Shown here: piece after piece, positions 22,336-59,203 of the stretch
Numbering within the stretch: position 1 is the first letter of the stretch
Layout of the letters: every line of letters begins with the position of its first letter
Virus record (IMG/VR): IMGVR_UViG_2851955134_000009
Reading direction: 5' to 3' (one strand)
DNA from: a virus
Taxonomy: Duplodnaviria > Heunggongvirae > Uroviricota > Caudoviricetes
DNA length: 64,000 bases
The notes under the pieces: model-generated
What the model saw: the letters and a program-made list of their open reading frames with translations, nothing else
Told to the model about the DNA's origin: nothing
Databases searched by the model: none
Translations under genes and position numbers: made by a program

Positions 22336-22341
22336 TACCGT

Positions 22342-33064: not shown

Positions 33065-33161
33065 GATTGTGCTCCTGTGTAAGTTCAGGGCAGTATGTCG
33101 GGAGAAGCGCGTGACGGATATTAAAGGAGATTAAGAAGAAGGGGCCGGAGCCCCTGTGATG

Positions 33162-33443: not shown

Positions 33444-33445
33444 CG

Positions 33446-36545: not shown

Positions 36546-36546
36546 C

Positions 36547-36882: not shown

Positions 36883-36892
36883 AGACTTCTCC

Positions 36893-37846: not shown

Positions 37847-37855
37847 GCTTTCTCC

Positions 37856-38971: not shown

Positions 38972-39185
38972 TTTGCTGTCCCGCGTTATGTTGTCGGAGA
39001 CAGTTTGTGAGAAATGCGGGCCCGGCGATTTTAATCTGCTTTAGAAAACATCAGGGGAGAAGGACAGGGAAAGCAATGTGGTGAACCGGAGGCAGTTATA
39101 AAACAGAGGCTGTAAAGCCTTTATAAAGGTAATACAGCCCCTCATTCGCTGGCAATGATAAATCACCCGCCTGAAGAGAGAAAAC

Positions 39186-39644: not shown

Positions 39645-39646
39645 TG

Positions 39647-40468
39647 TTATCCTCTCAGTTCCTGTTGTGCCAGTGGCTGAAGCGTACCCTGATAGCGGGC
39701 CAGGTCGGGACGGTATGCTGCCCCCGGTGCATAAGACCAGCCGACGTCGGTGGTCACCTTCGTGGTGCCGGTATTAAAGGTGGCCACGTTCCACATTTCG
39801 CCGGTTTTCTCTGAGACCAGTTTCAGTTCCTGGCCCATGGCAGAGCCGGAGCTGATAACCTTCAGGCCACGGGCACGTACATCCGCCGCACTCAGGGCAA
39901 TCACACTACAGCGGCAGCGCCAGCCGTTCGGCGGGTAAAATGCCTGCCAGAACGGGTCATCCCAGCGCAGCACCAGACCATGCAGCGCCAGATGGCTCCT
40001 GCGGGTATGGCTGTCGTTGATGCCGGTATACATCCAGTACGGCCTGTCGTCGACGTTTTCCATCTGCTCCGCCCAACGACCGGCGCTGTAGAGTACGGAC
40101 ATATTGGTGCGAAAGATGGTATCGAGCCGCCACGGACTGCCCTGCTGAATGGTGACCGGCTCACCCGTTACCGGGTCAGTCGTGTCACGCGGTCCCCACC
40201 ATCCCCTGCGCTTCAGCGCCGGCTCCAGCTCCTGCCGGAACCAGCGATCGGTTTTTCCTTCATCAACAGCCTGCTGCAGTGTCCCGCGAATATCTTCCAG
40301 AATATCCAGGCGGGTCACTTTAGCGACGGTAAAGGCGCGGGCATGGGCGTCCTGCCACATTTCTTCCTGGTCCCAGGTAATCTGATACCCTTTGGACTTC
40401 AGGTAGCTGACTGCCCGCTTCGGGGGAAGCGTCATGCAGTACGCCAGTTCAGCCGTTGTCACGCTCAT
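39647..40468 (-). CDS. Minor head protein (Mu F-like)
   Basis: Start set to ATG at 40468 (GGGGG RBS); about 273 aa; follows portal. Confidence 0.7.
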   Translation of the reverse strand: MSVTTAELAYCMTLPPKRAVSYLKSKGYQITWDQEEMWQDAHARAFTVAKVTRLDILEDIRGTLQQAVDEGKTDRWFRQELEPALKRRGWWGPRDTTDPVTGEPVTIQQGSPWRLDTIFRTNMSVLYSAGRWAEQMENVDDRPYWMYTGINDSHTRRSHLALHGLVLRWDDPFWQAFYPPNGWRCRCSVIALSAADVRARGLKVISSGSAMGQELKLVSEKTGEMWNVATFNTGTTKVTTDVGWSYAPGAAYRPDLARYQGTLQPLAQQELRG

Positions 40469-43468: not shown

Positions 43469-44013
43469 GTGGCAATCCCCAGAATCTCGCGACGAAGTGC
43501 CTGTACTGCGTCGCTTGACAATCCGCCCTTACGGGCAATTTTCTCGGCCGCATTCGCTGCAAGTTCTGCTTTTTCCTTGACCTCACTCTGAAAACGCTTG
43601 AGATTGACAGAGGCGCGGGTCAGGGTCGCAATATTGCGGGAAGCGGTGGCCAGCAATTTCGCCCGATCAGTCGGATCATTCTCGTCACTGACTTGTTGCA
43701 GACGCATCAGGATGTCGATCATCTCCGTCTGGATCAACGTCATCAGTCCCGCAGAACGGTCATCCGCATCATCCCCCGCTTCACGAGCCATCAGCCTGGC
43801 TGCTTCAGTTGCCGCACGAACACGGGCCAGTTGCTGCTCCATTTTGTAGCCGAACCGCTGCAGGGAGGAGCGGGTTATCACATATCCCCTCTCTTTTAAC
43901 AAACTTTCAAGTTCAGCATAGCCGGTGAAATTATTCTCCGTCAGCGCCCGCTCCAGCCAGCGGCGGACATCCGTCGGCAGAGAATCAATGCTGCTGCGAC
44001 GTCCCATAATCAC
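43465..44013 (-). CDS. Terminase small subunit-like protein (Mu gp27 position)
   Basis: 182 aa helical protein directly upstream of terminase large subunit. Confidence 0.55.
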   Translation of the reverse strand: MIMGRRSSIDSLPTDVRRWLERALTENNFTGYAELESLLKERGYVITRSSLQRFGYKMEQQLARVRAATEAARLMAREAGDDADDRSAGLMTLIQTEMIDILMRLQQVSDENDPTDRAKLLATASRNIATLTRASVNLKRFQSEVKEKAELAANAAEKIARKGGLSSDAVQALRREILGIAT

Positions 44014-44321
44014 TCACTCCAGTATTTTTCCGGTCGGGCAATACCCGGGCCGCATTCCACGGTGTATTCCACAATATCCACACCAAGGCGACTCAGATCG
44101 GCAAACCAGTCACCGGACGGTCTCTTCTCCAGCTCCACCATTTTGCGATCTGCCAGATAATCAAGCTCCCGGCGCAGCTCCAGTTGCGTGGTGTCCGGGT
44201 AGATGGCGCGGGACACGTCCAGCAGCAGCGTCTCGCTGGCGGTGTAAGGGCGGGTTTTGTTCAGGGCAACCAGCAGACTCCAGCGCAGGGATTCACGGCG
44301 TACCCGGGTAATATCGACCAT
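44010..44321 (-). CDS. Hypothetical protein
   Basis: 103-aa ORF coupled to neighbours. Confidence 0.45.
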   Translation of the reverse strand: MVDITRVRRESLRWSLLVALNKTRPYTASETLLLDVSRAIYPDTTQLELRRELDYLADRKMVELEKRPSGDWFADLSRLGVDIVEYTVECGPGIARPEKYWSE

Positions 44322-44647
44322 TATTGACCTCCGGTATTGCGGTACTGCTGTACCACTTCCAGTTTGTTGTAAAGCGCGTCCAGTTTGGCCTCGATGACTG
44401 TCTGGCCACGGATATAATCCTCGCGACGGACATAATTCAGCGGTAAATCCGCTTTAAATCGCATAAATTCTTTTTCCAGCTCGCCCCAGTTGGATGCAGA
44501 CTGTTGCAGGGCCTGTTCAAGAGAGGCGAATCGTGCCGCCTGGCGTTCTTCTGTTTTACTGAACAACCATTTGGCGAGCCCTCCCACAAACCCCATGAAG
44601 GTGAGCAAAAAACTCACCACCGTCCAGAATTCAACCTGCAGTGTCAT
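44321..44647 (-). CDS. Membrane protein, lysis-region
   Basis: 108 aa with N-terminal TM helix. Confidence 0.5.
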   Translation of the reverse strand: MTLQVEFWTVVSFLLTFMGFVGGLAKWLFSKTEERQAARFASLEQALQQSASNWGELEKEFMRFKADLPLNYVRREDYIRGQTVIEAKLDALYNKLEVVQQYRNTGGQ

Positions 44648-45294
44648 TTCTGTAATCCTTCCCGTTCATCCAGTAGCGCGTTTATCTGGTTCCGCCAGCG
44701 ACGACATTGCCCTGCGTTGTCGATGATGTTGGCGAGAACGTCACGCTGGGAGACGCCTGAGTCGCGTAGCCAGGCGTCAGCGGTTTCAGGTTGCCCGGTC
44801 GCTGTGCCAGAGCGGGTGCCAGTGGCGGCAACTGAGTCTGAATGACCGCTGTCGACGGATGCGTTGTCATATCCGAGTGCGGCGTTGTACTGGCGCACGA
44901 AACCGCGAGTAAACACGCACTCAATGGGATGGCTCTTACCTTTTTCATCAATCCAGCGCTGTGTGACATCGTTAATTTGCCCCTGTAGTTGTTTATTCCG
45001 GCTCTCCAGTTGAGCAATCTGCTCAAGGTAACTGGCTTCAGCCTGCTGCCCGGCGGCCACCTGCTCCTGATACCGTTTTGCCCAGGCCCGCAACGCAGCG
45101 TTCTCAAGCGTTGCCTGCTCCGTTTTGTATTTGTCGAATGCTGACTGCAACTGACTGAGCGCGGTATTACCGTCACGCTTTGCAGAGTCATGACCACTGC
45201 TGTATCCCATGGCATACAGGCCGACCAGAAAGGCATTGATAAGAATGGCCAGCAGAATGCCGCGCCACGGCAGCTTTTTAACCAGATGCCACAC
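44644..45294 (-). CDS. Spanin-like lysis protein (TM plus coiled coil)
   Basis: Start set to GTG at 45294 with GGGAGG RBS; TM GILLAILINAFLVGLYAMGY then coiled coil. Confidence 0.55.
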   Translation of the reverse strand: MWHLVKKLPWRGILLAILINAFLVGLYAMGYSSGHDSAKRDGNTALSQLQSAFDKYKTEQATLENAALRAWAKRYQEQVAAGQQAEASYLEQIAQLESRNKQLQGQINDVTQRWIDEKGKSHPIECVFTRGFVRQYNAALGYDNASVDSGHSDSVAATGTRSGTATGQPETADAWLRDSGVSQRDVLANIIDNAGQCRRWRNQINALLDEREGLQK

Positions 45295-46018
45295 AACTGC
45301 TGCCTCCCCATGTGAGATATCGCGGTGCCAGCTCGCGCAGGATGCGTTGTGGATAATGGCGGTTCTCCCGCCAGCTGGCAGCATTGCGTCCGGCATTCAC
45401 CGTGGCGACATGTCCGAACCAGCGCTGACTGTCCAGCCCCAGATATGCGGCGAGCCGCTGGTCACGGCGCACCCAGCCCGGGCCACCGTTATAGCCCGAC
45501 AGTGTCATGGCCATACGCTCGCAGTCGCTGGCGGCACTGATGCGCTGCCACAGCCAGCGGTCATAACTGACCAGCGCCCGGATAGCCCATGCCGGATTAA
45601 ACGGCTCTCGACTGCTCAGCGCCGGCATCAACTGGCTTATCCAGTCGGCAGTGGCAGGCATAAACTGCGCCAGTCCCTGAGCCCCCACCGGCGAGATCGC
45701 ATCAGGTCGCCAGCCGCTTTCCTGATGCAGTTGCGCAGCGAAATCAGCCACCGGCGCAGACAGTCCCCATTCAAGCCGGGCATTACGGATCACATCATCG
45801 CGATACTGCAGGGCAGCCCGCGGGGGCTGTGCTGCGGATGCCTGACTGAAAAAGCCACCACACCAGAGCAACATTGCGACAAAGAATACCCATGCCATAT
45901 GAACCAGAAAGGTCCCGGCGCGGACTGACAGGCGTTCGGTTCTGATGAAGACCCGAAAGGCTTCGAAAGCCAGTTTCAGGGACATGCATACAATCCAGGT
46001 GATCTGCGGCCAGTTCAT
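45278..46018 (-). CDS. Lytic transglycosylase endolysin with N-terminal membrane anchor
   Basis: SLT-type motif (LHQESGWRP...AQGLAQFMPAT) and hydrophobic N-terminus; follows holin-like gene. Confidence 0.75.
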   Translation of the reverse strand: MNWPQITWIVCMSLKLAFEAFRVFIRTERLSVRAGTFLVHMAWVFFVAMLLWCGGFFSQASAAQPPRAALQYRDDVIRNARLEWGLSAPVADFAAQLHQESGWRPDAISPVGAQGLAQFMPATADWISQLMPALSSREPFNPAWAIRALVSYDRWLWQRISAASDCERMAMTLSGYNGGPGWVRRDQRLAAYLGLDSQRWFGHVATVNAGRNAASWRENRHYPQRILRELAPRYLTWGGSSCVASG

Positions 46019-46020
46019 GA

Positions 46021-46371
46021 TTAAAGCCCCATCGCAACAGCCAGACAGACAGCTGCAACAATCAGTGCACGACGAAGCAGGGCGGCAGCAAACACCAGAT
46101 GAAGCCCGGTCTGTACGGGCCAGCGCCCCTCAGCCATGAGGCGCTCGTCATGCTTCAGGTACTGCCCCGGGCGGGCCTTCGGGAAGAGCGAGCGGTCCAG
46201 CCAGTAGCCGAGAACGGAGGCGAGGGAGATGAGAGAGAGCTTGTACACCACCACCGGCAGCTGCTGGGGCGAGACCAGCGCGATGATGAGGAGCAGCAGT
46301 ACGGCGGCAACAAGCCAGCCACGCAGGCGGGTTTTTTGTACGTCTGCGATAAGGGAGGTGAGTTTTTTCAT
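46021..46371 (-). CDS. Holin-like membrane protein
   Basis: 116 aa with 2-3 TM helices, first gene of leftward late/lysis operon. Confidence 0.55.
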   Translation of the reverse strand: MKKLTSLIADVQKTRLRGWLVAAVLLLLIIALVSPQQLPVVVYKLSLISLASVLGYWLDRSLFPKARPGQYLKHDERLMAEGRWPVQTGLHLVFAAALLRRALIVAAVCLAVAMGL

Positions 46372-46503
46372 AAAGATGTCTCCTTGTGTAGTGGAGACAG
46401 CATCACAAATACGGGGCGCGAAGGATTTTAAAGCGCGTTAAGAGAGCCGGGGATACGGGATGCGCAGAATAAACGATGAATTATTCACAGAGGAGAATAC
46501 GAT

Positions 46504-47247
46504 ATGACGCACACACTGAATCCGGTCATCACTGTCACTGTGTCCGGTCCTGTGGGCAGCGGTAAAAGTTACGTACTGGCGCGGATAGAAGAGATGGTGA
46601 AACAGGAACTCGGAAACAGCGTCATTGTCGATGCTGCTGACGTGGAGAATGAGCGCCGTATGAGTGGCGATGATCTGACGACCTGGCAGAAGCCACGGGC
46701 TGGCACAGTGATCAGGCTGGAGGAATACACGGGACAGGGCCTGTTGTCATACGGCGAGGAGCGTATCTGTCGGACGAATGAGCTGCTGGATGTTATATGC
46801 CCCGCGGGCCGGCAACCCTGGATACTGCCCGATGCACTGCATGCCACCATTGCGGCACTGATGACAGTTTACGATCAGGAACTGCTCATGAAGGAGTTAC
46901 GTAAACTCACCGGTCAGCCAACAGAATGTTTTTCGGCCCCGAAGTACGGGAAGCAGGAACACATCCCGGTGAACACAATCCCCGTTAACCAGCCTCCCCG
47001 GTTCTTCGACGAATACATTCTGACACCGGAAAATAAAGCTGAGCATGAAGAGATCAAAGAGGCGTTGTTCCGGGAAATCAGGAAGATTGCTGAAATGCAA
47101 CTGGGGGGCGGGCTGGACAGAGTGATGGCGAGAGGAGAATGGGAGTCGCTGTTTGAAAGAGTTTCCCCGGAATTACTGCCCCTCGCACTGGCTATCGGGA
47201 TTATGCAGACAGCAGATAAACCTCACTTACGTTCATCAAACACGTAG
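46504..47247 (+). CDS. P-loop NTPase of unknown function (accessory)
   Basis: 247 aa; Walker A GPVGSGKS at residues 15-22; lies between lysis genes and repressor. Confidence 0.55.
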   Translation: MTHTLNPVITVTVSGPVGSGKSYVLARIEEMVKQELGNSVIVDAADVENERRMSGDDLTTWQKPRAGTVIRLEEYTGQGLLSYGEERICRTNELLDVICPAGRQPWILPDALHATIAALMTVYDQELLMKELRKLTGQPTECFSAPKYGKQEHIPVNTIPVNQPPRFFDEYILTPENKAEHEEIKEALFREIRKIAEMQLGGGLDRVMARGEWESLFERVSPELLPLALAIGIMQTADKPHLRSSNT

Positions 47248-47300
47248 CGCAGAATATTTTGCCGGTGAGTACATAAAAATCATCATTTAAGGAGTGCATC

Positions 47301-47516
47301 ATGAATCCCCGATTAACGTTAACAGAACATCAGCGCCGTGCTGAAGCAGTGAACAATGTTCTGGAAGATATTATCCGGTTACATCGCGGAGAACTGAGTG
47401 TCTGTCGTGCCGCTTTTCATTTTCAGGGAATACAAAAGCAGTTTGATACTTCTGTTTTTGCAGAAGGTATTACTTATGCCCTGGACCGGATAAGGTCAGA
47501 AAATCGCCCCGGATAA
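47301..47516 (+). CDS. Hypothetical small protein
   Basis: 71 aa; AAGGAG RBS. Confidence 0.5.
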   Translation: MNPRLTLTEHQRRAEAVNNVLEDIIRLHRGELSVCRAAFHFQGIQKQFDTSVFAEGITYALDRIRSENRPG

Positions 47517-47707
47517 TCCCTAAACCACATTAACAGAAATCCCACTATCCCTGCCGCATCATGAAAGAACGACCAGCCCGGTGCTTCGGACCCACCGGGC
47601 TGGCCATCGTCCCACAGAAGTGGCTGTGAGCCGACCGAGGTTCAGTCAGTCTCGCGAGACCAGACTAGCCTGCCATATTTTTAATAATTGTAAAAGGCTT
47701 ACAGATT

Positions 47708-48472
47708 ATGAAAATGCAGACATTACCCATCGTTCCATGGATTGGTGGCAAACGCCGCCTTGCAAAACACATTCTGCCGCTGTTTCCGGCGCATGAATGT
47801 TATGTGGAGCCGTTTTGTGGGGCAGCAGCGCTCTATTTTCTTAAGACACCCGGCAAGATCGAAGTCATCAATGATATCAACGGTGAACTGGTGAATCTGT
47901 ACCGGGTGGTAAAGCATCACCTGGAAGAATTTGTCCGCCAGTTCAAATGGGCGCTGGTCAGCCGTCAGATCTACAAATGGCTGCAGATCACCCCGGAAGA
48001 AACACTGACGGATATCCAGCGTGCGGCACGGTTCTACTACCTTCAGAAGCAGGCGTTTGGCGGCAAGGTGGCAGAGCACAGCTTCGGTACCTCCACCACA
48101 TCCCCGCCACGCTTCAACCTGCTGCGTATTGAAGAAGAACTGTCAGCGGCACACCTGCGGCTTTCCAGAACAGTCATAGAACACATGGACTGGCAACAGT
48201 GCATTGAGCGTTATGATCGTCCGCACACGCTGTTCTACTGCGACCCACCGTACCTGGGTACGGAAGGCTATGGTGTGGATTTTCCTGAAGGGAACTACTC
48301 GCGGCTGGCAGAGCTGGCCCGGTGCATCAGAGGAAAAATGATAATTTCGGTGAACGACATCCCGCAGATGCGCGAGGTGTTCACTGGACTGAACATACAG
48401 ACAGTGAATATCAACTACAGTCTGGCGGGTAAATCCACGCCGCGCCGTGAACTGCTAATCTGCAACTTCTGA
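47708..48472 (+). CDS. DNA N6-adenine methyltransferase (Dam-like, orphan)
   Basis: 254 aa; PWIGGKRRL N-terminal motif and DPPY catalytic motif (LFYCDPPYLGT); no restriction partner. Confidence 0.85.
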   Translation: MKMQTLPIVPWIGGKRRLAKHILPLFPAHECYVEPFCGAAALYFLKTPGKIEVINDINGELVNLYRVVKHHLEEFVRQFKWALVSRQIYKWLQITPEETLTDIQRAARFYYLQKQAFGGKVAEHSFGTSTTSPPRFNLLRIEEELSAAHLRLSRTVIEHMDWQQCIERYDRPHTLFYCDPPYLGTEGYGVDFPEGNYSRLAELARCIRGKMIISVNDIPQMREVFTGLNIQTVNINYSLAGKSTPRRELLICNF

Positions 48473-48588
48473 AACAAAACCGGAAAGCACAATGCTTTCC
48501 GGTAAACCAAACAACTTCCACTATGTCACTGGCGATGTTTTCTGAAATCATCCAGATCAACCACCTGTCTTTTGTGTCCGGGTCAGTA

Positions 48589-48936
48589 TCAGCCTGCGAT
48601 TTTTCCTGGTTTTGGCTGAGTATAGAAGCGCCCAACCTCAAGAAATGAGCGTCGTTGCTCCGGAGTCATTTCATCAAATGCGTCCATTAATTTCTGTTTG
48701 TCTGGTGACATTTTTGGGATAGCGTTGGTAGTTGCATCCCCTCTCTGTCCCGTAACAACGTAAAGCACGTCAAGCCCCAAAGTAGCCCAAATTGCCAAAG
48801 CATCTGCTCCGGGAGCGGATTCATCCTTTTCCCACCGCAATTGGCTTTTATAGGATGCCCCCACCAATTCAGCAAACTCAGACTGACTAAATCCTAGGCG
48901 GTTTCGTTCTTCTTTTAATCGTGAACCAAGTGACAT
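48589..48936 (-). CDS. Repressor-like HTH protein (XRE/Cro-C1 type)
   Basis: 115 aa; HTH (RLGFSQSEFAELVGASYKSQLRWE); divergent from Ner-like early operon. Confidence 0.7.
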   Translation of the reverse strand: MSLGSRLKEERNRLGFSQSEFAELVGASYKSQLRWEKDESAPGADALAIWATLGLDVLYVVTGQRGDATTNAIPKMSPDKQKLMDAFDEMTPEQRRSFLEVGRFYTQPKPGKIAG

Positions 48937-49029
48937 TTTTGTCCCAATATCTATTTACATATCCCATTATTGGGATAATAATCTAACAAATATAAAGCAA
49001 ACATCATTGCACTAAACAAGGAGACAACA
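48937..49029. promoter_or_regulatory. Divergent promoter/operator region between repressor and early operon
   Basis: AT-rich; inverted repeat CCCAATA (48943..48949) / TATTGGG (48968..48974); GGAG RBS before early gene. Confidence 0.45.
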
Positions 49030-49218
49030 ATGACTGCAGACCAGGTCAAAGCTCATTTCCGTCGCAATGGGATCACTTTTACCCAGTGGGCAAAACAGAA
49101 CAACTACACCAGAGCGGAGGTTTACCGCGTACTGAATGGCCAGGTAAAAGCGAACTACGGCAAAGCCCATGAAATCGCTGTCAAGCTGGGATTAAAAACC
49201 ATCACTGACGCCGCTTAA
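49030..49218 (+). CDS. Ner/Cro-like small DNA-binding protein
   Basis: 62 aa, first early gene; HTH-like NYTRAEVYRVLNGQ. Confidence 0.55.
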   Translation: MTADQVKAHFRRNGITFTQWAKQNNYTRAEVYRVLNGQVKANYGKAHEIAVKLGLKTITDAA

Positions 49219-49271
49219 AAAGATACAGCATACGAAAAAGATTATCACATATTGAAAAAAGAGGTGTGCAG

Positions 49272-49580
49272 ATGAGTAAGACGAATGTTTCAAGCTCCGG
49301 CAGTCGCATCCTCCGGGTACTAAAAGCGCTGCGTGGTCATGCTCTGAACGGTATTTCCAACGGTGAACTGGCAGCAGCACTGCACGAGTCACCGGCGAAC
49401 ATCAACCGGGCACTCAACACCCTCATTGAAGAAGGGCTGGCTCTGAAACTGGAGAACGGACGTTTCGCACCGGGCATTCAGTTGCTGCAGATCGCCATGG
49501 CCCACAGTAACGAGATGGCACGTGCACAGGATCGTATTAACGAAATTAACCAACGTGTTATTTCAGGAAGTCGTTTGTAA
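49272..49580 (+). CDS. Hypothetical DNA-binding protein
   Basis: ATG at 49272 with GAGG RBS; 102 aa. Confidence 0.5.
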   Translation: MSKTNVSSSGSRILRVLKALRGHALNGISNGELAAALHESPANINRALNTLIEEGLALKLENGRFAPGIQLLQIAMAHSNEMARAQDRINEINQRVISGSRL

Positions 49581-49590
49581 GGAGTAATCA

Positions 49591-50508
49591 ATGGGACGCA
49601 CCAAATCACCGGTTAGCACTGAACTGAACGTCGAGGTACCGCTGTCGGATGATCTCAATGTCAGTCTGAACGCCATGACACAGCATCGCATGGAAATCAT
49701 GCAACAGTTCGGCGATGGTCTGCCCTATGAGCGCGATCGTGTTGTCCATGAGGCACGCTTTTATATGGCACAGAGCGCTGAGGCCATGCTGGAGGCAGGT
49801 AAACGGCTAATAATCCTTAAGGAAAATGAACCACACGGGGAGTTTATAAAGATTCTTGAAAGTGAGTTGGGGCTGGCATACCGGACATCTGTGAGAATGA
49901 TGCAGGCATCGACAAAATACTTATCCCCGGCGCTGAAACCAAATGTGCCAACGTTGGCACATTTGGGAAAAGCCAAACTTTTCGAATTAATGACAGAAGA
50001 CGACGAAGAGCTTGCCGAACTGGCCGACGGCGGTACGGTTGCCGGCCTGACGCTTGACGATGTTGATCGCATGTCAGTACGTGAACTTCGTCAGGCCCTG
50101 CGCGAAGCGCGCGAAACCAATGCAGCACAACAGCGTGTTCTAGCCGACAAAAATGAAAAAATCGACTCACTCTCCACCAGGCTGGAGAAAAAATCCCGTA
50201 TTCAACCGCCTGAGCCTGATGAAGAGGTGAAGAAGCTGCGGGCGGAAGTGACCGCATTAGCGGTTGAGGCGGAATCTGCCATCGCCGTCCGGCTCTCCGG
50301 TGCCTTTGAAACCCTGTGTGAATACTGCAGTAAAAACATGATTGATACCCCCAGAGATTTCATGGCCGGTCTGGTCTGCCAGATTGAACGCAGTGTTCAT
50401 GCATTGCGTGAGACGTTCGACCTTGATGCCGCACCATCGGGTAACGATGTCCCCGCATGGCTGACCGAACCGGAGCCTGAAATCAACCGACCGGAGGGCA
50501 TGCGTTAA
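49591..50508 (+). CDS. Hypothetical early protein
   Basis: 305 aa, acidic, coiled-coil segment. Confidence 0.55.
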   Translation: MGRTKSPVSTELNVEVPLSDDLNVSLNAMTQHRMEIMQQFGDGLPYERDRVVHEARFYMAQSAEAMLEAGKRLIILKENEPHGEFIKILESELGLAYRTSVRMMQASTKYLSPALKPNVPTLAHLGKAKLFELMTEDDEELAELADGGTVAGLTLDDVDRMSVRELRQALREARETNAAQQRVLADKNEKIDSLSTRLEKKSRIQPPEPDEEVKKLRAEVTALAVEAESAIAVRLSGAFETLCEYCSKNMIDTPRDFMAGLVCQIERSVHALRETFDLDAAPSGNDVPAWLTEPEPEINRPEGMR

Positions 50509-50825
50509 TGAACACGAATAATACACAAAATATCCTGATGGACAGCCCGGAAGCACTGGGGCACGCACTGTGTAATCTGCTGCCGGAGATGGTGCAGGGT
50601 TTCCGCGTGGTGACACCTTCCGGTGAAATCTGCGTACCCGCACAGGAGGCGCATCCGTTTGTACTGACGATGGAAGTGATGCTGATGCAGCAGATAAGAC
50701 GTCTGCAGCATCAGTCAGCATTGCGCCCGGCAGTTGCGCCGCAACCGGTAAATAACGTGGTGAAAACCTGCGATGGCGAAACCCTGCGCGACCGTGCCAG
50801 AAAAATTGCCGCCAGAATCGGATAA
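50508..50825 (+). CDS. Hypothetical protein
   Basis: 105 aa; TAATG overlap. Confidence 0.45.
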   Translation: MNTNNTQNILMDSPEALGHALCNLLPEMVQGFRVVTPSGEICVPAQEAHPFVLTMEVMLMQQIRRLQHQSALRPAVAPQPVNNVVKTCDGETLRDRARKIAARIG

Positions 50826-50840
50826 CAGGGAAGACAAGCT

Positions 50841-52610
50841 ATGACCCCGGCACTGACTGAAAAACTTGTTGAAACAGCCCGCGCGGCACGTAATGCGGGG
50901 CATGGTAAACGCGGTGCAATATACGACGCTGCCTGTGCTGAACTTGGCATGTCCCGCGCCACTCTGCTGCGCAGGCTGAAGGAGGTCTCTGTGACTGATA
51001 AACGCAAAAAACGCGCCGATGCCGGACGCAGCACCCTGACCCGCGACGAAGCCGCGCTGATATCTGCCACACTACGTGAGGCCACCCGCAAGAACGGTAA
51101 GCGTCTCTATTCCATCGCGGATGCAGTGGAAACCCTGCGGGCTAACGGCTTTATCTCCGCAGGCAGAACAGATGAAACCACCGGTGAGTTTTTCCCGTTG
51201 TCCGAAGATGCCATCAGTCGTGCCCTGCGTAACTATGGCCTGCACCCGGAACAACTGGATGCCCCTGCACCGCATACCGAAGTGGCCAGTCTGCACCCCA
51301 ATCATGTCTGGCAGATTGACGCCTCACTCTGCACGCTTTACTACCTGAGCAATGGACATAAAGGGCTGCAGGTGATGGACAGCGCGAAATTCTACAAAAA
51401 CAAGCCCGCTAACCTTGCCCGTATCGCCAGTGACCGCGTGTGGAGTTACGAGATTACCGACCATGCCAGCGGCTGGATTTACGTTGAGTATGTGACGGGT
51501 GCGGAATCCGGTGAGAACCTGTGTTCTGTGCTTATCAACGCCATGCAGGAGCGTGGCGGCGCAGACGTGCTGCACGGCGTGCCAAAAATACTCTATCTCG
51601 ACCCCGGCTCGGCAAACACCGCGGGTATGACGAAAAACATGTGCCGCTCACTGGGCATCGACCTGATAGCGCACAAGCCGCATAACGCCCGCGCCACCGG
51701 ACAGGTGGAAAAGGCGCGTGACATTATCGAACGCAAGCTGGAGCCGGGTCTGAAGTTCCGGCCGGTTCACAGTCTGGAAGAACTCAACGCGCTGGCCGCG
51801 AAATGGCGCAGCCACTTTAACGCCACGGCTGTTCACAGCCGCCACGGTAAAACCCGCACGGATATCTGGCTGAAGATTACTGCTGAGCAGCTGAAAAAAG
51901 CGCCTTCCGTTGAGGTATGTCGTGAACTGGCTGTGGCGGCACCAGAACTCCGCAAAGTCACGCCAAAACTTCGTGTCTCGTTCCGGGGCACTGAATTTGA
52001 CGTATCAACGGTACCGGGCGTACTGGTCGGTGAAAAACTGATGATTACCCGTAACCCGTGGCGCAGCGATGTGGCACAGGTGGTTCTGACCGGTGAGGAC
52101 GGCCACGAGACGTTCTTCCTGGTCGAAGAGGTCAGAAAGAACGAGTTTGGCTTTGCTGAAGGCGCGGCGGTATTTGGCGAAAGTTACAAAGCCCTGCCGG
52201 AAACCCCGGCGCAGATGGCGGCAAAAGAAACCGAAGCGCTGGTCACCGGTACAGACAACGCCGCAGATGCAGCTGCCGCACGCAAGGCGAAGGCGCTGCC
52301 GTTCGGCGGGCGGCTTGACCCGTATAAACATATTGATGACGCCACACTTCCGGCCTGTATACCGAAGCGTGGTCAGGCCTCTGACGTACGCGGACCGCGC
52401 ACTGAACAGCGTCCCATGACTCATGTGGAGGCCGCGAAAGCCCTGCGCGGGAAGTTTAGCGCAAACGGCCTGACCTGGACGCCGGAACATTACCGCCAGT
52501 TAACAGCACAGTACCCGGACGGCGTACCGGAAGCCGCACTGGATGAAGTCATGGCCACGCTGACCACGCCGGCCCGCAGCAGCGTTATCAGCATTGTTAA
52601 CGGCAACTGA
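50841..52610 (+). CDS. DDE transposase (retroviral-integrase-type core), transposable-phage A-like
   Basis: 589 aa; N-terminal HTH; core with HVWQIDAS, YLDPGSANT and downstream E; followed by AAA+ partner. Confidence 0.8.
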   Translation: MTPALTEKLVETARAARNAGHGKRGAIYDAACAELGMSRATLLRRLKEVSVTDKRKKRADAGRSTLTRDEAALISATLREATRKNGKRLYSIADAVETLRANGFISAGRTDETTGEFFPLSEDAISRALRNYGLHPEQLDAPAPHTEVASLHPNHVWQIDASLCTLYYLSNGHKGLQVMDSAKFYKNKPANLARIASDRVWSYEITDHASGWIYVEYVTGAESGENLCSVLINAMQERGGADVLHGVPKILYLDPGSANTAGMTKNMCRSLGIDLIAHKPHNARATGQVEKARDIIERKLEPGLKFRPVHSLEELNALAAKWRSHFNATAVHSRHGKTRTDIWLKITAEQLKKAPSVEVCRELAVAAPELRKVTPKLRVSFRGTEFDVSTVPGVLVGEKLMITRNPWRSDVAQVVLTGEDGHETFFLVEEVRKNEFGFAEGAAVFGESYKALPETPAQMAAKETEALVTGTDNAADAAAARKAKALPFGGRLDPYKHIDDATLPACIPKRGQASDVRGPRTEQRPMTHVEAAKALRGKFSANGLTWTPEHYRQLTAQYPDGVPEAALDEVMATLTTPARSSVISIVNGN

Positions 52611-52620
52611 GGAGGGAAAC

Positions 52621-53787
52621 ATGCTGGTACTGAAGCAGCAACTGAAAGAGGCCCGTATTCCACAGGCGGTGGCGGCGAGAGCTGTCGATGTTTCTGAGGC
52701 CACGCTGGCCCAGATTGTGAATCATAACGCGTGGCCCCGCACCAGCCCCGGAGAAGTGCGCCGGCGTCTTGCGTCCTGGCTGGAAAGTCAGGGGATTGAT
52801 ACAACGAAGAGTTTTGATGCTGTACAGGGCGCGGCCACGCCCCGTACAGCGGGTACCACAGATAAAACGAGCCTCAGTGAGGAAGAGAATATGTTACTCA
52901 AAAAACAGGTGTTATTTCCAGCAACCAAAAAAGCGTTTGGTCTTTTCCGTGACCCGTTCGCCGATGAAGCCATGCAGGGTTCTGATGATGTGTTCACCAC
53001 CCCGGACATTCGCTACGTGCGTGAGGCGCTGTACCAGACAGCCCGTCATGGTGGGTTTATGGCCGTCATCGGTGAGTCCGGTGCGGGTAAATCCACGCTG
53101 CGCCGCGACCTGACTGAACGTATTAACCGCGAGAATGCGCCGGTAATTGTTATCGAGCCATACATCATCGCTATGGAAGACAACGATGTGAAAGGGAAAA
53201 CCCTGAAGGCAGCAGCTATTGCCGAAGCCATTATCAGTACCATCGCACCACTGGAAAGCATCAGACGCAGTCAGGACGCCCGCTTTCGCCAGTTGCATCG
53301 CGTCCTGAAAGACAGCAGCCAGGCGGGGTTCAGCCACGTTCTGGTGATTGAGGAGGCCCACAGTCTGCCCATTCCGACACTGAAACACCTCAAACGCTTT
53401 TTTGAGCTGGAGTCCGGTTTCAAAAAACTGCTGTCCATCGTGCTGATTGGCCAGCCGGAACTGGCGACAAAACTGTCTGAACGCAATATGGAAGTCCGTG
53501 AAGTCGTTCAGCGCTGTGAGGTGGTCGAACTTCTGCCTCTGGACAATAACCTTGAAGAATTTCTGACGTTCAAACTGCAACGGGCCGGTAAACAACTGAC
53601 GGACATTATGGACGCCAGCGCAGTGGATGCCATACGTGCCCGCCTGAGCAATCCGGGAAGTCATCGTAAAAATATGGTCAGCCTGCTGTATCCGCTGGCC
53701 GTCAGTAACCTGGTAATAGCCGCCATGAATCTGGCCGCTGAAATCGGGGTTCCACAGGTCAACGCTGACGTTGTCAAAGGAGTTTAA
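52621..53787 (+). CDS. AAA+ ATPase transposition helper (Mu B-like)
   Basis: 388 aa; N-terminal HTH; Walker A GESGAGKST; Walker B VLVIEEAH. Confidence 0.8.
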   Translation: MLVLKQQLKEARIPQAVAARAVDVSEATLAQIVNHNAWPRTSPGEVRRRLASWLESQGIDTTKSFDAVQGAATPRTAGTTDKTSLSEEENMLLKKQVLFPATKKAFGLFRDPFADEAMQGSDDVFTTPDIRYVREALYQTARHGGFMAVIGESGAGKSTLRRDLTERINRENAPVIVIEPYIIAMEDNDVKGKTLKAAAIAEAIISTIAPLESIRRSQDARFRQLHRVLKDSSQAGFSHVLVIEEAHSLPIPTLKHLKRFFELESGFKKLLSIVLIGQPELATKLSERNMEVREVVQRCEVVELLPLDNNLEEFLTFKLQRAGKQLTDIMDASAVDAIRARLSNPGSHRKNMVSLLYPLAVSNLVIAAMNLAAEIGVPQVNADVVKGV

Positions 53788-53789
53788 TA

Positions 53790-54059
53790 ATGAAATCCAC
53801 CACAGGTATCAACCAGCAAATCAGCAAAGTGCAGTCAGCCATTATGGCGCTTAAGGCGACGAACACGGATGTACAAAGCATCACCATCAGGGGTAACAAA
53901 CCTGTCATCCGCGTTTCCCGGAGTGCGCATTGCATGCGCATGCTTGAGCAGGGAAAGGCCTGTTATCTGTATACCGGACATGACCACAGGGGATATTTCC
54001 GTCAGGGCGTTTTCGAACTGCACGGCTGTCGCGTCGTGTGGCCGGAATCTTTGTGGTAA
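53790..54059 (+). CDS. Hypothetical protein
   Basis: 89-aa ORF directly after the ATPase gene. Confidence 0.45.
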   Translation: MKSTTGINQQISKVQSAIMALKATNTDVQSITIRGNKPVIRVSRSAHCMRMLEQGKACYLYTGHDHRGYFRQGVFELHGCRVVWPESLW

Positions 54060-54086
54060 TCAGCACAACCGGAGAAATCATAAAAT

Positions 54087-54617
54087 ATGGCAAAAAGTAC
54101 AAAAGGGGCAAAACGTATCAAGGCCGCAGCGGCACTCTGGGTACCAGGGACACGCGAAGAGGTCATTGAGGGAATCAGACTACTCGGTGACGCACAACGT
54201 GAACTGGTCAGGGCTGAAACAGAAATGAATGACGCCATTGGCGATATCACCGCACGTTATGCCCCGCTCACCGAGAGCCTGAAAAAACGCATGGCCGAAC
54301 TGCAGTCCGGTATCCAGACATGGTGTGAGGCGCACCGTGATGAACTGACCGGCAACGGGAAGGTGAAGTTCGCTAACCTTACCACCGGCGAGGTGCAGTG
54401 GCGAAACCGTCCGCCATCAGTCAGTATCCGTGGGGCGGATAATGTTATTGAATTACTGAGACGTCTGGGGCTTGAGCGCTTTATTCGTGTAAAAGAGGAA
54501 ATAAATAAAGACGCTATCCTGAATGAAAAAGAGGCCGTGAAAAATATTCCCGGTATTTCCATTAAAAGCGACATTGAGGATTTTTCAATAATTCCTTTTG
54601 AGCAGGATGTGCAGTAA
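54087..54617 (+). CDS. gam: Gam-like host-nuclease inhibitor
   Basis: 176 aa; strong similarity to Mu Gam as recalled (RIKAAAA...TEMNDAI...WCEANRDELT...SIRG...FIR.K.EINK.AIL...SDIEDFSIIPFEQ). Confidence 0.85.
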   Translation: MAKSTKGAKRIKAAAALWVPGTREEVIEGIRLLGDAQRELVRAETEMNDAIGDITARYAPLTESLKKRMAELQSGIQTWCEAHRDELTGNGKVKFANLTTGEVQWRNRPPSVSIRGADNVIELLRRLGLERFIRVKEEINKDAILNEKEAVKNIPGISIKSDIEDFSIIPFEQDVQ

Positions 54618-54714
54618 ACACACCACGTTAATTATTTAATAAAAACATTTTCTTTTTTATTCCGGCGTCAGCGCCGCGGGCTTCTGCACGCCGGAAACAG
54701 AGGAGAATTAAATC

Positions 54715-54909
54715 ATGATATTTAAATGTATTCAGTGCGAGAGGGATATAACAGCCCTGCGTTTTCACAGCGCCATCGCCGTGATGTCCGGTAAATACCA
54801 CATCCCTGCGGTACGCGTCACCCTGGTCTGCCCGTACTGCAGCCAGCATTTTTCGGCGGACGTGCCCGTCATGGAATTCTCCCGCCCTGACAGGGAGGAC
54901 GCGCAATGA
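54715..54909 (+). CDS. Small zinc-ribbon protein
   Basis: 64 aa with CxxC (CIQC) and CxxC (CPYC); GAGGAG RBS. Confidence 0.5.
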   Translation: MIFKCIQCERDITALRFHSAIAVMSGKYHIPAVRVTLVCPYCSQHFSADVPVMEFSRPDREDAQ

Positions 54910-55178
54910 TTACCCCACAGGAAGCACGACAGCGCACCCGAACCCTTGTTGAACACTATGTCAACGAGTGTGAATGCCGCAACCTCACCGATGTGAAGCA
55001 CGTCCTGACGGCACTAATCAGTATGGCCGCTCAGGCCATTGTGGCAACCAACGGAAAGGCGGCTGCCCTGCAGGTACTGGTGAACACACTCACCCACACG
55101 GCAGAGCATGAGGTGCCGTACCGGATGGAAACCACTGCAGAAGGCGGCCTGCACATCACCGTCAGCCGGAAGCACTGA
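54906..55178 (+). CDS. Hypothetical protein
   Basis: 90 aa, ATGA overlap. Confidence 0.45.
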   Translation: MITPQEARQRTRTLVEHYVNECECRNLTDVKHVLTALISMAAQAIVATNGKAAALQVLVNTLTHTAEHEVPYRMETTAEGGLHITVSRKH

Positions 55179-55187
55179 GGGCGCGGC

Positions 55188-55484
55188 ATGACACGGAACA
55201 CCATACTCACCCGCACCGCCCTCTACCGTCTGGCCCTGCAGCGTTTCGGGCCGGACGCACAGGCCCTGAAACTGACAGAAGAGGCCGCTGAACTGGCGGC
55301 CAGTGCTGCCCGCAATCTGAACGGACAGGGCAGCGAAAGTGACCTCGCGGCAGAGCTGGCAGACGTGGAAATCATGACAGAGCAATTGCGCCTTCAGGGA
55401 ATGGACCGGCTGATTGACTTCCACAAACAGAAAAAACTGGAACGTCTGGCTGCACGACTGGGCGTGATTTACACGAACGAGTAA
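55188..55484 (+). CDS. MazG-like nucleotide pyrophosphohydrolase domain protein (tentative)
   Basis: 98 aa with paired acidic helices KLTEEAAELA ... AELADVEIM typical of the MazG/NTP-PPase fold. Confidence 0.45.
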   Translation: MTRNTILTRTALYRLALQRFGPDAQALKLTEEAAELAASAARNLNGQGSESDLAAELADVEIMTEQLRLQGMDRLIDFHKQKKLERLAARLGVIYTNE

Positions 55485-55498
55485 CCGGGAGGCATTCA

Positions 55499-55714
55499 AT
55501 GGCTGACATACTCAGGGAAATCACCGCATGGACACTGATTCTTACTGGCCTGGCGACATGCCTCAGTGCGGGAGCAGCCCTGGCTGCCCTGCTGATGCAC
55601 ATAACAACACAGTGGTTATGGGAAAAGCTTAAAGCAGCATACAGCCTGAAAGAGCTGTCCGACGCTGTCCGGGCATGGAAACGGCAGAAAAATACCGGAG
55701 ATACAGAACAATGA
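55499..55714 (+). CDS. Small membrane protein
   Basis: 71 aa, one TM helix. Confidence 0.45.
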   Translation: MADILREITAWTLILTGLATCLSAGAALAALLMHITTQWLWEKLKAAYSLKELSDAVRAWKRQKNTGDTEQ

Positions 55715-56394
55715 CAGACCAGAATAAACACATTGAGAAACTGAAAAAGTTGCTGGCGCTGGCCGCATCCGGCAACCCGCACGAGGCCGCTCTGGCACTG
55801 CGCCGAGCCCGTAAACTGATGGATGTTCACGGCATCACACATTCCGACATTGCTATGAGTGATATTGATGAAACCATCAGTCATTACTGGCCGACAGGCA
55901 GTCTCCGTCCACCGCGCTACATGCTGGGCCTGATGAACATCATCCGCGAGGCATTTGGTGTTAACTCCATCATTCACCCCGGCACGCATCCGTCTGTGGG
56001 GTTCTACGGTAACCGGGAACGAGCGGCACTGGCTGCGTACACCTGGGAAGTGCTGGTCCGCCAACTGAAAAAGGCGCGTCAGCAGTATATCAGCGCACAG
56101 AACAAAAGAATAAAAAACGCCACCCGTACCAGCCGTGGAGACCAGTTTGCTGAAGGCTGGGTACTGGCCGTTATCAGTGAAATACAGTCCTTTGCCCTGA
56201 CCGATGATGAGCGTGAACTGATGCAACAGTGGCTGGAACATAAATACCCGCAAACGCAAACCACCAGGGCGCGTAAACCGGGAAGAAGCCGCAATGGCGA
56301 CGTCTCGCGCTATGCGGGGTTTCGTGAAGGGCAGAACGTCAGACTGCACCGCCCGGTCAGTGGGCAGGAACAGCAGAAACTGGAGGCCAGATGA
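55711..56394 (+). CDS. Hypothetical protein (DUF2786-like N-terminus)
   Basis: ATG at 55711 (ATGA overlap); N-terminal KLKKLLALAASGNPHEAA motif. Confidence 0.5.
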   Translation: MTDQNKHIEKLKKLLALAASGNPHEAALALRRARKLMDVHGITHSDIAMSDIDETISHYWPTGSLRPPRYMLGLMNIIREAFGVNSIIHPGTHPSVGFYGNRERAALAAYTWEVLVRQLKKARQQYISAQNKRIKNATRTSRGDQFAEGWVLAVISEIQSFALTDDERELMQQWLEHKYPQTQTTRARKPGRSRNGDVSRYAGFREGQNVRLHRPVSGQEQQKLEAR

Positions 56395-56621
56395 TTACGT
56401 TATCAGGTAACAGCCGGAAATTAAAAGCCTGCCGAATATCTCCCAGATACCTTTTTGCCCGCGCCTTTTTTAAGAACGTCAGGCCGGGGATCACAATTGG
56501 TGTTATTGCCGGACGCGAACAGGTTGAAAAATACATGTCAGGTGCATGGTGGAATAAAGACCCTGTCATTGCTGCCCGTAATATTCATATCAGTTGGGGG
56601 GATATTCAGAATGACTGCTGA
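56391..56621 (+). CDS. Hypothetical protein
   Basis: 76 aa, ATGA overlap. Confidence 0.35.
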   Translation: MITLSGNSRKLKACRISPRYLFARAFFKNVRPGITIGVIAGREQVEKYMSGAWWNKDPVIAARNIHISWGDIQNDC

Positions 56622-56826
56622 ATCTGTTGTATGTGCCCTGTTCTGGTATTGTTTTGTCGGTTGGTGTACTGCTGAACTGCACCGCCGTTCAGGGTTTTAT
56701 TCACGTTACAGTGGTGCCGGTTACTGGATTAGCTGGTCGGTGATGTTCCTGTGCTGGCCTGTGGCATTTCCTTTATATGTCTATTATATCAGTGATGCAG
56801 GCAGAAGGAGCAACGATGATGACTAA
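56611..56826 (+). CDS. Small membrane protein
   Basis: Internal ATG at 56611 with G-rich RBS; two TM helices. Confidence 0.4.
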   Translation: MTAESVVCALFWYCFVGWCTAELHRRSGFYSRYSGAGYWISWSVMFLCWPVAFPLYVYYISDAGRRSNDDD

Positions 56827-57268
56827 ACAACGTCTTATCCAGCTTATCCATATTGCCCGTAATGAACTGGGTATGGATGAAGACACCTACCGCCAGATGT
56901 TACAGGGGCTGACCGGTAAAGCCTCAACCAAAGGAATGGATACCACACAACTAAACTGCGTGCTGGAATCCATGAAAAAGAAAGGCTTTCGCGTTAAACC
57001 AGCCAGAAAAGCCAGCTCCGGTTTACCGCTGGATAACCATCCGCAGTCCAGGAAAATTCGTGCGCTATGGCTTGAAATGGCTGCTGCCGGCATTGTTCGT
57101 GACCGTTCAGAAAATGCATTAGCGAGGTGGATCAAGCGGGAAACGGGCATCAGCGCCCTGCGCTGGCTCAGTACTGAACAGGCAGGCAGTGTTATTGAGA
57201 AACTGAAGAAGTGGCAGCACAGAGCTGCGGGAGTAAAACATGAGCGACCTGAATCAGTTTCGAAGTAA
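56816..57268 (+). CDS. gemA: GemA-like regulatory protein (Mu gp16 family)
   Basis: 150 aa; MTKQRLIQLIHIARNELGMDEDTYRQML...; AGGAG RBS. Confidence 0.65.
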   Translation: MMTKQRLIQLIHIARNELGMDEDTYRQMLQGLTGKASTKGMDTTQLNCVLESMKKKGFRVKPARKASSGLPLDNHPQSRKIRALWLEMAAAGIVRDRSENALARWIKRETGISALRWLSTEQAGSVIEKLKKWQHRAAGVKHERPESVSK

Positions 57269-57638
57269 AGGGCCGGAACTCCTGGTGGAACTGGCACAGC
57301 ATACCTCTGAGACCGTTCGCGAGATTATTGATATTGAGCCCGCAATTGCCGACCAGATTGGTCAGGCCGTCGCGAACCGCATGATGCAGGTCTGGGGCGG
57401 GCAAAACGTTTATTTCCCGATGGGCATGGTATGGAAGGTCAGTCAGCGCGACCGGGAAATCTTCAGGGAGTTTAACGGACGTAACCACCATGAACTGGCC
57501 CGCAAATTTGGTGTTTCGCTTCAGTGGGTCTACAGCGTGGTTAAGCGGGTAAGAAAAGAAGAACTGGATCGGATGCAGGGCAGGTTGTTTGATGAAGATC
57601 TGCCAGAGGAGACGAAAGACGTTAACAAATCCAGATAA
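57240..57638 (+). CDS. mor: Mor-like middle-operon transcriptional activator
   Basis: 132 aa; C-terminal HTH (ELARKFGVSLQWVYSVVKR); position after gemA as in Mu. Confidence 0.65.
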   Translation: MSDLNQFRSKGPELLVELAQHTSETVREIIDIEPAIADQIGQAVANRMMQVWGGQNVYFPMGMVWKVSQRDREIFREFNGRNHHELARKFGVSLQWVYSVVKRVRKEELDRMQGRLFDEDLPEETKDVNKSR

Positions 57639-57682
57639 TTCCTGCTTGTTAAAGTCCTTTCAAAAATCTCCTTATTGTATAA

Positions 57683-57714
57683 AAGCACGGTAGACCCCTT
57701 ACCGTGCTTTTTTT
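57683..57714 (+). terminator. Rho-independent terminator ending the early operon
   Basis: Perfect 10-bp stem AAGCACGGTA/TACCGTGCTT, 7-nt loop, followed by T7. Confidence 0.8.
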
Positions 57715-57752
57715 ATGCTCTCTCTTTAGTATTCAGGATGCAGGGAGAAAAT

Positions 57753-58385
57753 ATGTTTGACGTTTCGTTGTTAAATCTGCCATGGGCAACACTGGTGACC
57801 CTGACCAGTGGCTATATTGGGTATTTTATTGCGAATGTGGGACTGAAGGATCACCACAAGCCCATTGAGGTGACTTTTTCTTCGCTGATTTTTGGCCTGA
57901 CAGCAATGATGGCTTACCAGGCTGTTATGTGGGCAGGTCTGAATGCCTGGCTGGCAACACCACCAGCACTTCTGTGTGCCGTTACATGCGGTGCGTGGTG
58001 GCGCAGGTACGGTCGCAAATGGATGTACAGATTACTGTGGAATAATGATATTTCATGGTCTGACGATACCAGCTCAGCATGGCAGGCAATGTTTGATCAA
58101 ACAGGCTTCAGCGTTACCGAGGTCAGAGTGATTCTTCGCGATGGTTCCGGTATGATGTCACGGCTGCCAGGGAACTTTGAAGAGTGGCCTAACGGTCCGT
58201 TTACCCTGGGGAATAAAGGCGATATGGTTCTTTACGTCACGCACAGCAGCCCTTCAGGCAGTAACGAATGGGAAGAGTATAAAGGCGTGGTTGATAAGTA
58301 CTGGGGAGCTCTGGCAACCTATATTCCAGCAGATCAGATTGCCAGAGTGGAGATCAGGCGCGTTCGTGCAACGAACGATGAATGA
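57753..58385 (+). CDS. Membrane protein moron at the element left end
   Basis: ATG at 57753 with GGGAG RBS; 210 aa; 3 predicted TM helices at N-terminus; separated from early operon by a strong terminator. Confidence 0.6.
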   Translation: MFDVSLLNLPWATLVTLTSGYIGYFIANVGLKDHHKPIEVTFSSLIFGLTAMMAYQAVMWAGLNAWLATPPALLCAVTCGAWWRRYGRKWMYRLLWNNDISWSDDTSSAWQAMFDQTGFSVTEVRVILRDGSGMMSRLPGNFEEWPNGPFTLGNKGDMVLYVTHSSPSGSNEWEEYKGVVDKYWGALATYIPADQIARVEIRRVRATNDE

Positions 58386-58689
58386 TGTTTATTTTTTCCC
58401 TGGGGCAGGGGCTGCCGGCATAGTGGTTTTATTGGCAGAGGAAGACGATTCTCCTTTTCTACCGGAATCGCGCTCGAACGTCACGATGTGCTTGCTTTTG
58501 GGCTTTTCTGAGTAATCCAGGCTATCATGCTTATTGTTTTGAGTAGTCATTGGAATCATCCTTTTTGTTGCGGGTCATGTTTCAGCAAACTCGATTCTAA
58601 GTTGCCAGGAAGGATGATTTCAATGCCCGACTTATCTATCGTATAGCGGAAAAGAATTTCAGTTCTGTTCACCAGAACCCATGTTAACC

Positions 58690-58746
58690 CACTCCAATTC
58701 GTTATTTATCTCACGGATCCCCCTTCATTTATCTCATGTCTGATCA
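58690..58746. repeat. Left-end terminal repeat region (transposase binding sites)
   Basis: Reverse complement reads TGATCAGACATGAGATAAATGA...GTGAGATAAATAA, same motif spacing as the right end. Confidence 0.7.
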
Positions 58747-58771
58747 ATTATTGCGTGTCAGGAGCGAAACA

Positions 58772-59203
58772 GTGAACAAACCACAATCCCTGCGCCACGC
58801 CCTCAATAAAGCGGTGCCTTATGTCCGCAATAACCCGGACAAACTGCATCTGTTTGTGGATAACGGTTCGCTGGTTGCCACGGGGGCCAGCTCCATGTCA
58901 TGGGAGTACCGCTACACCCTGAACGTGGTGATTGAGGATTTCAGCGGCGACCAGAATCTGCTGATGGCCCCGGTTTTGCTGTGGCTGCGTGATAACCAGC
59001 CCGATGCCATCAATAACCCGGCGTTACGGGAAAAGCTATTCACCTTTGAGGTGGATATTCTGCGCAACGATGTCTGTGATATCAGCCTCAACCTGCAACT
59101 GACGGAGCGTGTGCTGGTCAGCACTGACGGCAGTGTGTCGAGCGTTGAAGCTATAGCGGAACCTGATGAACCTGAAGAAATGTGGACGGTGAAACGTGGC
59201 TGA
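58772..59203 (+). CDS. R: Tail completion protein (P2 gpR-like)
   Basis: GTG at 58772 with AGGAG RBS; the track start at 58736 lies inside the Mu-like end and is probably not native. Confidence 0.75.
   Translation: MNKPQSLRHALNKAVPYVRNNPDKLHLFVDNGSLVATGASSMSWEYRYTLNVVIEDFSGDQNLLMAPVLLWLRDNQPDAINNPALREKLFTFEVDILRNDVCDISLNLQLTERVLVSTDGSVSSVEAIAEPDEPEEMWTVKRG

Follow-up and report, generated by a model that had tools for sequence, protein, structure and literature searches.

Boundaries and target-site duplication of a BcepMu/B3-type transposable prophage inserted in lysC of a P2/186-like prophage

The closest described relatives of the element reported here are the transposable phages BcepMu (Bcepmuvirus), phiE255, PhiKM and KP12, which encode homologous transposases, and Pseudomonas phage B3 (Beetrevirus), which shares the transposase lineage. 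The early operon of BcepMu and its relatives is inverted, with mor adjoining the left end, and B3 likewise has an inverted early region with mor at the left end; in both BcepMu and B3 mor is gene 1 and adjoins position 1 of the record. In BcepMu and phiE255, imperfect repeats of 23 bp, presumed to be sites for the transposase, are found at the ends (PMC2920897). Relatives of BcepMu that have an rve core characteristically end in TG...CA (PMC2628397), as Mu and B3-like phages generally do (PMC8705779). The target duplication made by B3 is 6 bp long and has been interpreted as the trace left by 'a B3/Tn552 family transposase' (PMC8705779). A search of the literature found no direct statement on BcepMu's own target duplication length and no paper on phage PhiKM.

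Escherichia phage Mu (Muvirus) resembles the element in its near-random insertion, its TG...CA ends and its multiple transposase sites per end. Both also encode Gam, Mor, head genes of the Mu type and an AAA+ partner for target capture, and in both the right end has a Gin-type invertible tail-fibre segment. However, Mu duplicates 5 bp of its target compared with 6 bp for the element, and its transposase has MuA-specific domains that are lacking in the element's. The Mu early operon reads inward from the left end, where the repressor is located, whereas that of the element reads outward toward the end.

We identified positions 58704..58746 of a 64-kb stretch of DNA (hereafter the window) as the mor-proximal terminus of a complete 37.6-kb BcepMu/B3 prophage that transposed into the 3' end of lysC in a resident P2/186-like prophage (Table 1), a reading to which we assign a probability of about 0.93. 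The element is 37,595 bp long, its first bases being 5'-TGATG and its last GATCA-3', and ATTATT abuts it on both sides. The reverse complement of the mor-proximal end reads TGATCAGACATGAGATAAATGAAGGGGGATCCGTGAGATAAAT, and the other end reads TGATGCGCCGCGCGATAAATGCGCTCTATCTTGTGCGATAAAT. At each end the repeat core [CT]G[AC]GATAAAT occurs twice behind a terminal 5'-TGA with a period of 23 bp (16-bp gap), and the two pairs are mutually inverted. The composite pattern TGAT-N9-GATAAAT-N16-GATAAAT has exactly two matches in the window, one per end and in inverted orientation, and none in shuffled versions of it (0/100 shuffles). The GATAAAT heptamer alone is not enriched in the window (9 observed vs ~6 expected), and therefore the signal lies in the arrangement and not in the heptamer. 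Mirrored ends with a 5'-TGAT start, two GATAAAT motifs and ATTATT directly outside had been proposed in a sequence-only reading of the window, and all of these hold; the spacing of 22 bp given there does not, as the period is 23 bp.

An inverted copy of the right terminus, 12 nt long and 83% complementary (TGATGCGCCGCG), is found at 21203..21214, 39 nt inside the end. This could represent a third transposase site in inverted orientation, or a chance similarity.

Table 1. Features of the element and of the prophage that carries it. Positions refer to the window; L001 is the uninterrupted P2-like prophage in NZ_CP032204.1.
Feature	Position	Strand	Basis and remarks
Full-length BcepMu/B3-type transposable prophage	21152..58746	-	97-98.5% identical, collinear E. 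coli copies; orientation opposite to that of the BcepMu reference record
Left copy of the 6-bp target-site duplication ATTATT	21146..21151	.	Single copy in the L001 empty site
Right copy of the 6-bp target-site duplication ATTATT	58747..58752	.	Empty site and other insertions
Recombinase-proximal ('right') terminus	21152..21194	+	5'-TGA and two GCGATAAATG sites, 23 bp apart; putative transposase-binding sites
Mor-proximal ('left') terminus	58704..58746	-	5'-TGA and two TGAGATAAAT sites, 23 bp apart; last base A at 58746
Gin/Hin-type serine recombinase adjoining the right end	21230..21802	-	Pfam Resolvase and HTH_7; acts on the invertible tail-fibre segment
DDE transposase, 589 aa, rve core	50841..52610	+	Pfam rve only; phrog_310; transcribed toward 58746
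AAA+ transposition ATPase, functional analogue of MuB	52621..53787	+	Pfam AAA_22; phrog_296 'DNA transposition protein'; 'ExeA family' in other copies
Mor-family transcription activator, last gene of the early/middle operon	57240..57638	+	Pfam Mor, E 1e-43
Truncated P2-like lysC (Rz1-like spanin)	20960..21154	+	64 codons, compared with 82 in L001
P2-type tail completion gene R, 143 aa, most likely GTG start	58772..59203	+	Pfam P2_Phage_GpR; P2 start alignment; PGAP in L001
AGGAG ribosome-binding site	58760..58764	+	7 nt upstream of GTG; conserved with the stretch upstream of P2 R
In-frame ATG inside the element	58736..58738	+	R start in the program-made ORF list; most likely not the native one

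The length of the duplication was read from other copies of the element. Taken alone, the window fits a 5-bp as well as a 6-bp duplication, and a T occurs just outside the mor end in four of the first insertions read, as it would if this were a true Mu-type phage with one terminus lying 1 nt further out or in and a coincidental sixth base. Both flanks were read for six further E. coli insertions, in kefF, rstB (strain ABU 83972), irp2, ybhJ and two intergenic sites, which together with the window copy gives seven independent insertions. All seven have the same termini, TGATG... and ...(T/C)NATCA, and exactly 6 bp are duplicated in each (ATTATT, ACAGGA, ATTTGT, CATATG, GTGATT, ATTAGC and CCCTTT). 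Just outside the mor end, different insertions have T, G or C; outside the other end, whose outermost base (21152) is defined by the seven insertions, they have T, A, G or C. There are 117 near-full-length matches to the mor end in 5,426 complete E. coli genomes; among the matches listed, most stop exactly at 58746. The varying outside bases and the position at which most of the matches listed stop rule out a shifted end with a duplication of 5 bp. The transposase is also unlike that of Mu, as described below, and we consider a Mu-type origin of the ends exceedingly improbable. The sequence-only reading had noted that strict TG...CA ends give a 6-bp duplication and had looked to other copies for the exact termini; the comparison settles this question as a 6-bp duplication with strict TG...CA ends.

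In a second alternative, the two ATTATT copies would be native P2-like sequence or a repeat that arose by chance, and the 37.6-kb block would have been brought in by recombination. Hexamers rich in A and T are frequent, and a single 6-bp match is of modest significance. However, uninterrupted relatives that are 100% identical on both sides of the insertion read GACATGATTATTGCGTGTCAGG, with exactly one ATTATT at which the two flanks abut. One of these is L001, which is 100% identical over the flank and reads GTGGACATGATTATTGCGTGTCAGGAGCGAAACAGTGAAC, again with one ATTATT. The junction is thus not native P2-like DNA, a possibility raised when the site was first read. In addition, the six other insertions behave alike with unrelated hexamers. 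Chance repetition or recombination is accordingly left with hardly any probability, and transposition into a P2-like target remains the preferred reading.

An element with this mor-proximal end is found in approximately 117 of the 5,426 complete E. coli genomes. The targets are near-random, with copies interrupting kefF, rstB, irp2, ybhJ, proP, gudD, dcuC, lplA and other genes. The window copy and the kefF copy are collinear over their whole length at 97-98.5% identity. When both junctions were searched by megablast against the same 5,426 genomes, many matched the P2-like half only and many the element half only, and neither junction was spanned by any genome. The exact junction likewise had no matches (0) in species-representative genomes, and no exact-protein record was found for the ATG-extended R product (58736..59203) that this insertion would create. 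One E. coli match (H1) extends 16 nt past the element end; we attribute this extension to chance similarity of an unrelated flank.

We also identified an orphan relic of a related mor-proximal end. In plasmid pMS1718-1 (NZ_CP097712.1) approximately 145 bp, at ~2501..2650, correspond to 58593..58737 of the window with 89.7% identity; both GATAAAT sites are intact and the terminal bases are altered. The surroundings of this relic include IS1/IS3 remnants and an adjoining LysR-family gene. The relic occurs at many other places in E. coli, including 105 matching plasmid places counted, and among the matches listed the plasmids are mostly large avian-pathogenic E. coli plasmids.

The element is a BcepMu/B3-type transposable phage that is distinct from the Mu transposase lineage. 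In tblastn searches the transposase is 98.5% identical to that of Escherichia phage PhiKM (placed in Bcepmuvirus by NCBI taxonomy), 92% to that of Klebsiella phage KP12, 68% to BcepMu gp09 (residues 1-577, 98% of the length) and phiE255 gp40, and ~56% over its full length to those of B3-like Pseudomonas phages. Pfam searches found the rve domain above cut-off and none of the MuA-specific domains. A sequence search of the PDB with the transposase returned only marginal matches to retroviral-integrase cores and no MuA chain, even at E<=1. Every defining feature of the BcepMu/B3 type that could be tested was found in the element, and three features of Mu proper, namely the 5-bp duplication, a MuA-type transposase and the Mu early-region layout, were absent from it. 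The earlier description of the element as 'Mu-like' is better replaced by BcepMu/B3-type, a transposase lineage different from that of Mu. Similarly, the term 'left end' for the mor-proximal terminus is right by BcepMu/B3 convention, because mor is gene 1 next to position 1 in both phages, but not in the sense used for Mu, where it denotes the repressor and early-promoter end.

The element shares with BcepMu and its relatives the inverted early operon with mor adjoining the left end, the TG...CA ends with two 23-bp-phased repeats each, in identical register, and the combination of a P2-like tail/baseplate module with a Mu-like head module. Both ends in the window, the diverged left end of the irp2 copy and both BcepMu ends fit a common register, TGA-N10-GATAWWT-N16-GATAWWT. 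The terminal bases outside the conserved motifs differ, being TGAT in the element and TGAA in BcepMu. BcepMu has an acyltransferase where the right end of the E. coli element has the Gin-type recombinase and the invertible tail-fibre segment, and the accessory genes at the left end, described below, are the element's own. B3 has the same inverted early region as the element, and TG-CA ends and a 6-bp target duplication are reported for it (PMC8705779). However, it is a siphovirus with a different late region, and the motifs at its ends are less strictly kept (GAAATAC/GATAAAG at the left end; a second site shifted by 1 nt at the right end).

The end pattern was surveyed in other species at 80 loci with a gene for a related transposase (50-94% identity), 56 of the loci being full-length. 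These loci come from Enterobacterales, Burkholderiales, Neisseriales, Pseudomonadales and others. The strict pattern is present in 22 of the 56 full-length loci, and 39 of the 56 have it with at most two mismatches (<=2). It is always located 1.7-7.7 kb downstream of the transposase gene and on the opposite strand, and no instance was found elsewhere in these loci in ~2.4 Mb of scanned strand. The architecture of the mor-proximal end recurs at the same relative place in other species. A 6-bp duplication is the norm for this family; the literature documents it for B3 and related prophages, and we measured it for the E. coli element.

How the duplication is made can be proposed by analogy with DDE transposase chemistry, for which Mu is the model (summarised in PMC8705779). 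The rve-type transposase is presumed to bind the two 23-bp-phased sites at each end and, together with its AAA+ partner, would assemble a transpososome in which the ends are paired. It would then nick 3' of the terminal CA at each end, and the two 3'-OH groups would be joined to target phosphates staggered by six bases. Filling of the resulting gaps would produce the ATTATT duplication. We infer both the binding of the transposase to the repeats and the six-base stagger as the cause of the duplication.

The genes of the element are arranged in two divergent arms. The early operon (transposase, ATPase, gam, gp16 and mor) is encoded on the + strand in the direction of 58746, and the late genes on the - strand in the direction of 21152; the regulatory region is internal, at ~48.5-49.6 kb. 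Annotated copies encode the DDE transposase, ExeA-family AAA+ ATPase, Gam, gp16 and Mor, as well as a Dam methylase and holin and transglycosylase lysis genes. Their head genes are Mu-type (DUF3486, terminase, DUF935 portal and Mu F-like protein), and their tail genes are P2-type sheath, tube, baseplate and tail-fibre genes. A terminator scan identified a terminator-like hairpin of 13 pairs 3' of mor, at 57681..57711. Rfam at gathering threshold identified no RNA family in the whole window.

In the window the DNA adenine methylase gene (47708..48472, + strand) lies in the middle of the element, in the regulatory region that separates the divergent early and late arms. The copies are most divergent over 46.9-50.4 kb, with 80-95% identity compared with 97-99% elsewhere. 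At the right end of the element, the serine recombinase adjoins an invertible tail-fibre segment in annotated copies, and segment 22291..23476 of the window is in the opposite orientation in the irp2 copy (L005). This inversion fits a Gin-type invertible host-range switch run by the recombinase. Nearby, 23708..24491 shows the signal of a 484-bp internal direct duplication.

Two accessory genes lie between mor and the left end, at 57753..58385 (+ strand) and 58389..58550 (- strand). The first encodes a product of 210 aa (phrog_12870) whose N-terminal half appears hydrophobic by eye and for which there was no Pfam or PADLOC match. This gene is absent from the annotated irp2 copy, in which no sequence matched that part of the window. 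The second encodes a hydrophilic product of 53 aa (phrog_15726), and a 16-nt inverted repeat (58548..58563 / 58610..58625) covers its start codon and ribosome-binding site.

The insertion lies in the 3' end of lysC, at the lysC/R overlap and 20 bp upstream of the R start codon. The target locus is arranged as in P2, the end of lysC and the start of R overlapping by 38 nt, and R most likely starts here at the homologous codon, a GTG compared with the ATG of P2. The start of the P2 gpR coding sequence, ATG 8455, aligns codon-for-codon with GTG 58772, and the two proteins are 50% identical. The stretch upstream is also conserved (tgtcaggacgaaaacgATG in P2 vs tgtcaggagcgaaacaGTG in the window), including TGTCAGGA(G/C)GAAAAC, and in relatives of this prophage it is the coding tail of lysC. 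The Pfam GpR model (PF06891) matches residues 1-131 of the GTG product over model positions 1-133 of 133 (E 6e-48), beginning at residue 1, and PGAP also picks the GTG in L001.

It is also conceivable that R starts upstream of this codon, at TTG 58751 or at the ATG within the element, the latter giving a 12-residue N-terminal extension. Both codons are in frame with R with no intervening stop, and the TTG equivalent to 58751 was chosen by the annotators of the closely related phage Cartapus, which is why we regard the GTG as best-supported rather than proven. However, neither codon has a site comparable to the AGGAG that precedes the GTG, and residues 1-4 of the ATG open reading frame share nothing with close homologues. 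Along with the alignment to P2 and the limits of the Pfam model, these observations make an upstream start unlikely, and we retain the GTG. The ATG precedes the last base of the element (58746) and misleads ORF callers. The sequence-only reading had recognized that this ATG lies inside the element and had suggested GTG 58772 with its AGGAG as the native start, which the evidence above supports.

The resident prophage, which differs from P2 in its 186-type CI repressor, has been damaged by the insertion. The truncated LysC ends in ...VDMII, its TGA stop codon being the first three bases of the element, and the last 18 codons are lost. R and S are now 37.6 kb from the rest of the late operon. 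They are detached from the late P_O-type promoter and, judging from the structure of the operon, would no longer be expressed. The last open reading frame before the 58746 end is on the opposite strand, and given this and the terminator-like hairpin after mor, read-through from the element into R is unlikely. Through the truncation of lysC and the detachment of R and S the prophage is probably crippled.

It has to be considered whether the insertion is itself functional, with the left arm of the element driving R and S and so coupling the late functions of the two prophages, or with a hit on the essential late operon of a resident prophage being selected in competition between prophages. Shared orientation is the one observation in favor of such ideas. 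The terminator-like hairpin 3' of mor is strong, the last open reading frame before the end has the opposite strand, and the junction occurs in no other complete E. coli genome; we consider a functional insertion very unlikely.

The P2/186-like prophage also carries defence genes away from the insertion. A PD-Lambda-1 anti-phage defence gene (1136..2812, - strand; 558 aa; PADLOC E 2e-120; Pfam DUF4041 and T5orf172) is found between the integrase (1..1053) and the 186-type CI repressor (2833..3429). A Lamassu/ABC-3C-like set of three genes (10614..13610, + strand) occupies the tin/old hotspot of P2, immediately ahead of the portal gene Q, and has a low GC content (0.33-0.37). It encodes a CTD9-domain protein, an MC5 middle component and an LmuB-like SMC ATPase (PADLOC E 1e-42).

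The biology of this element is already known, as near-identical copies are present in many sequenced E. coli genomes and the sibling phage PhiKM is in GenBank. Its nesting in a P2-like prophage was seen in no complete E. coli genome searched, but is expected because transposition is near-random. Our understanding of transposable phages is unchanged, and the value of the analysis is mainly for annotation. The start of the P2-like R gene is corrected, where the ATG carried by the element would otherwise extend the protein. The limits of a transposable prophage that is common in E. coli are now known exactly, and the 6-bp duplication together with the TGA-N10-GATAWWT-N16-GATAWWT pattern offers a means of delimiting BcepMu-type prophages across many Gamma- and Betaproteobacteria.
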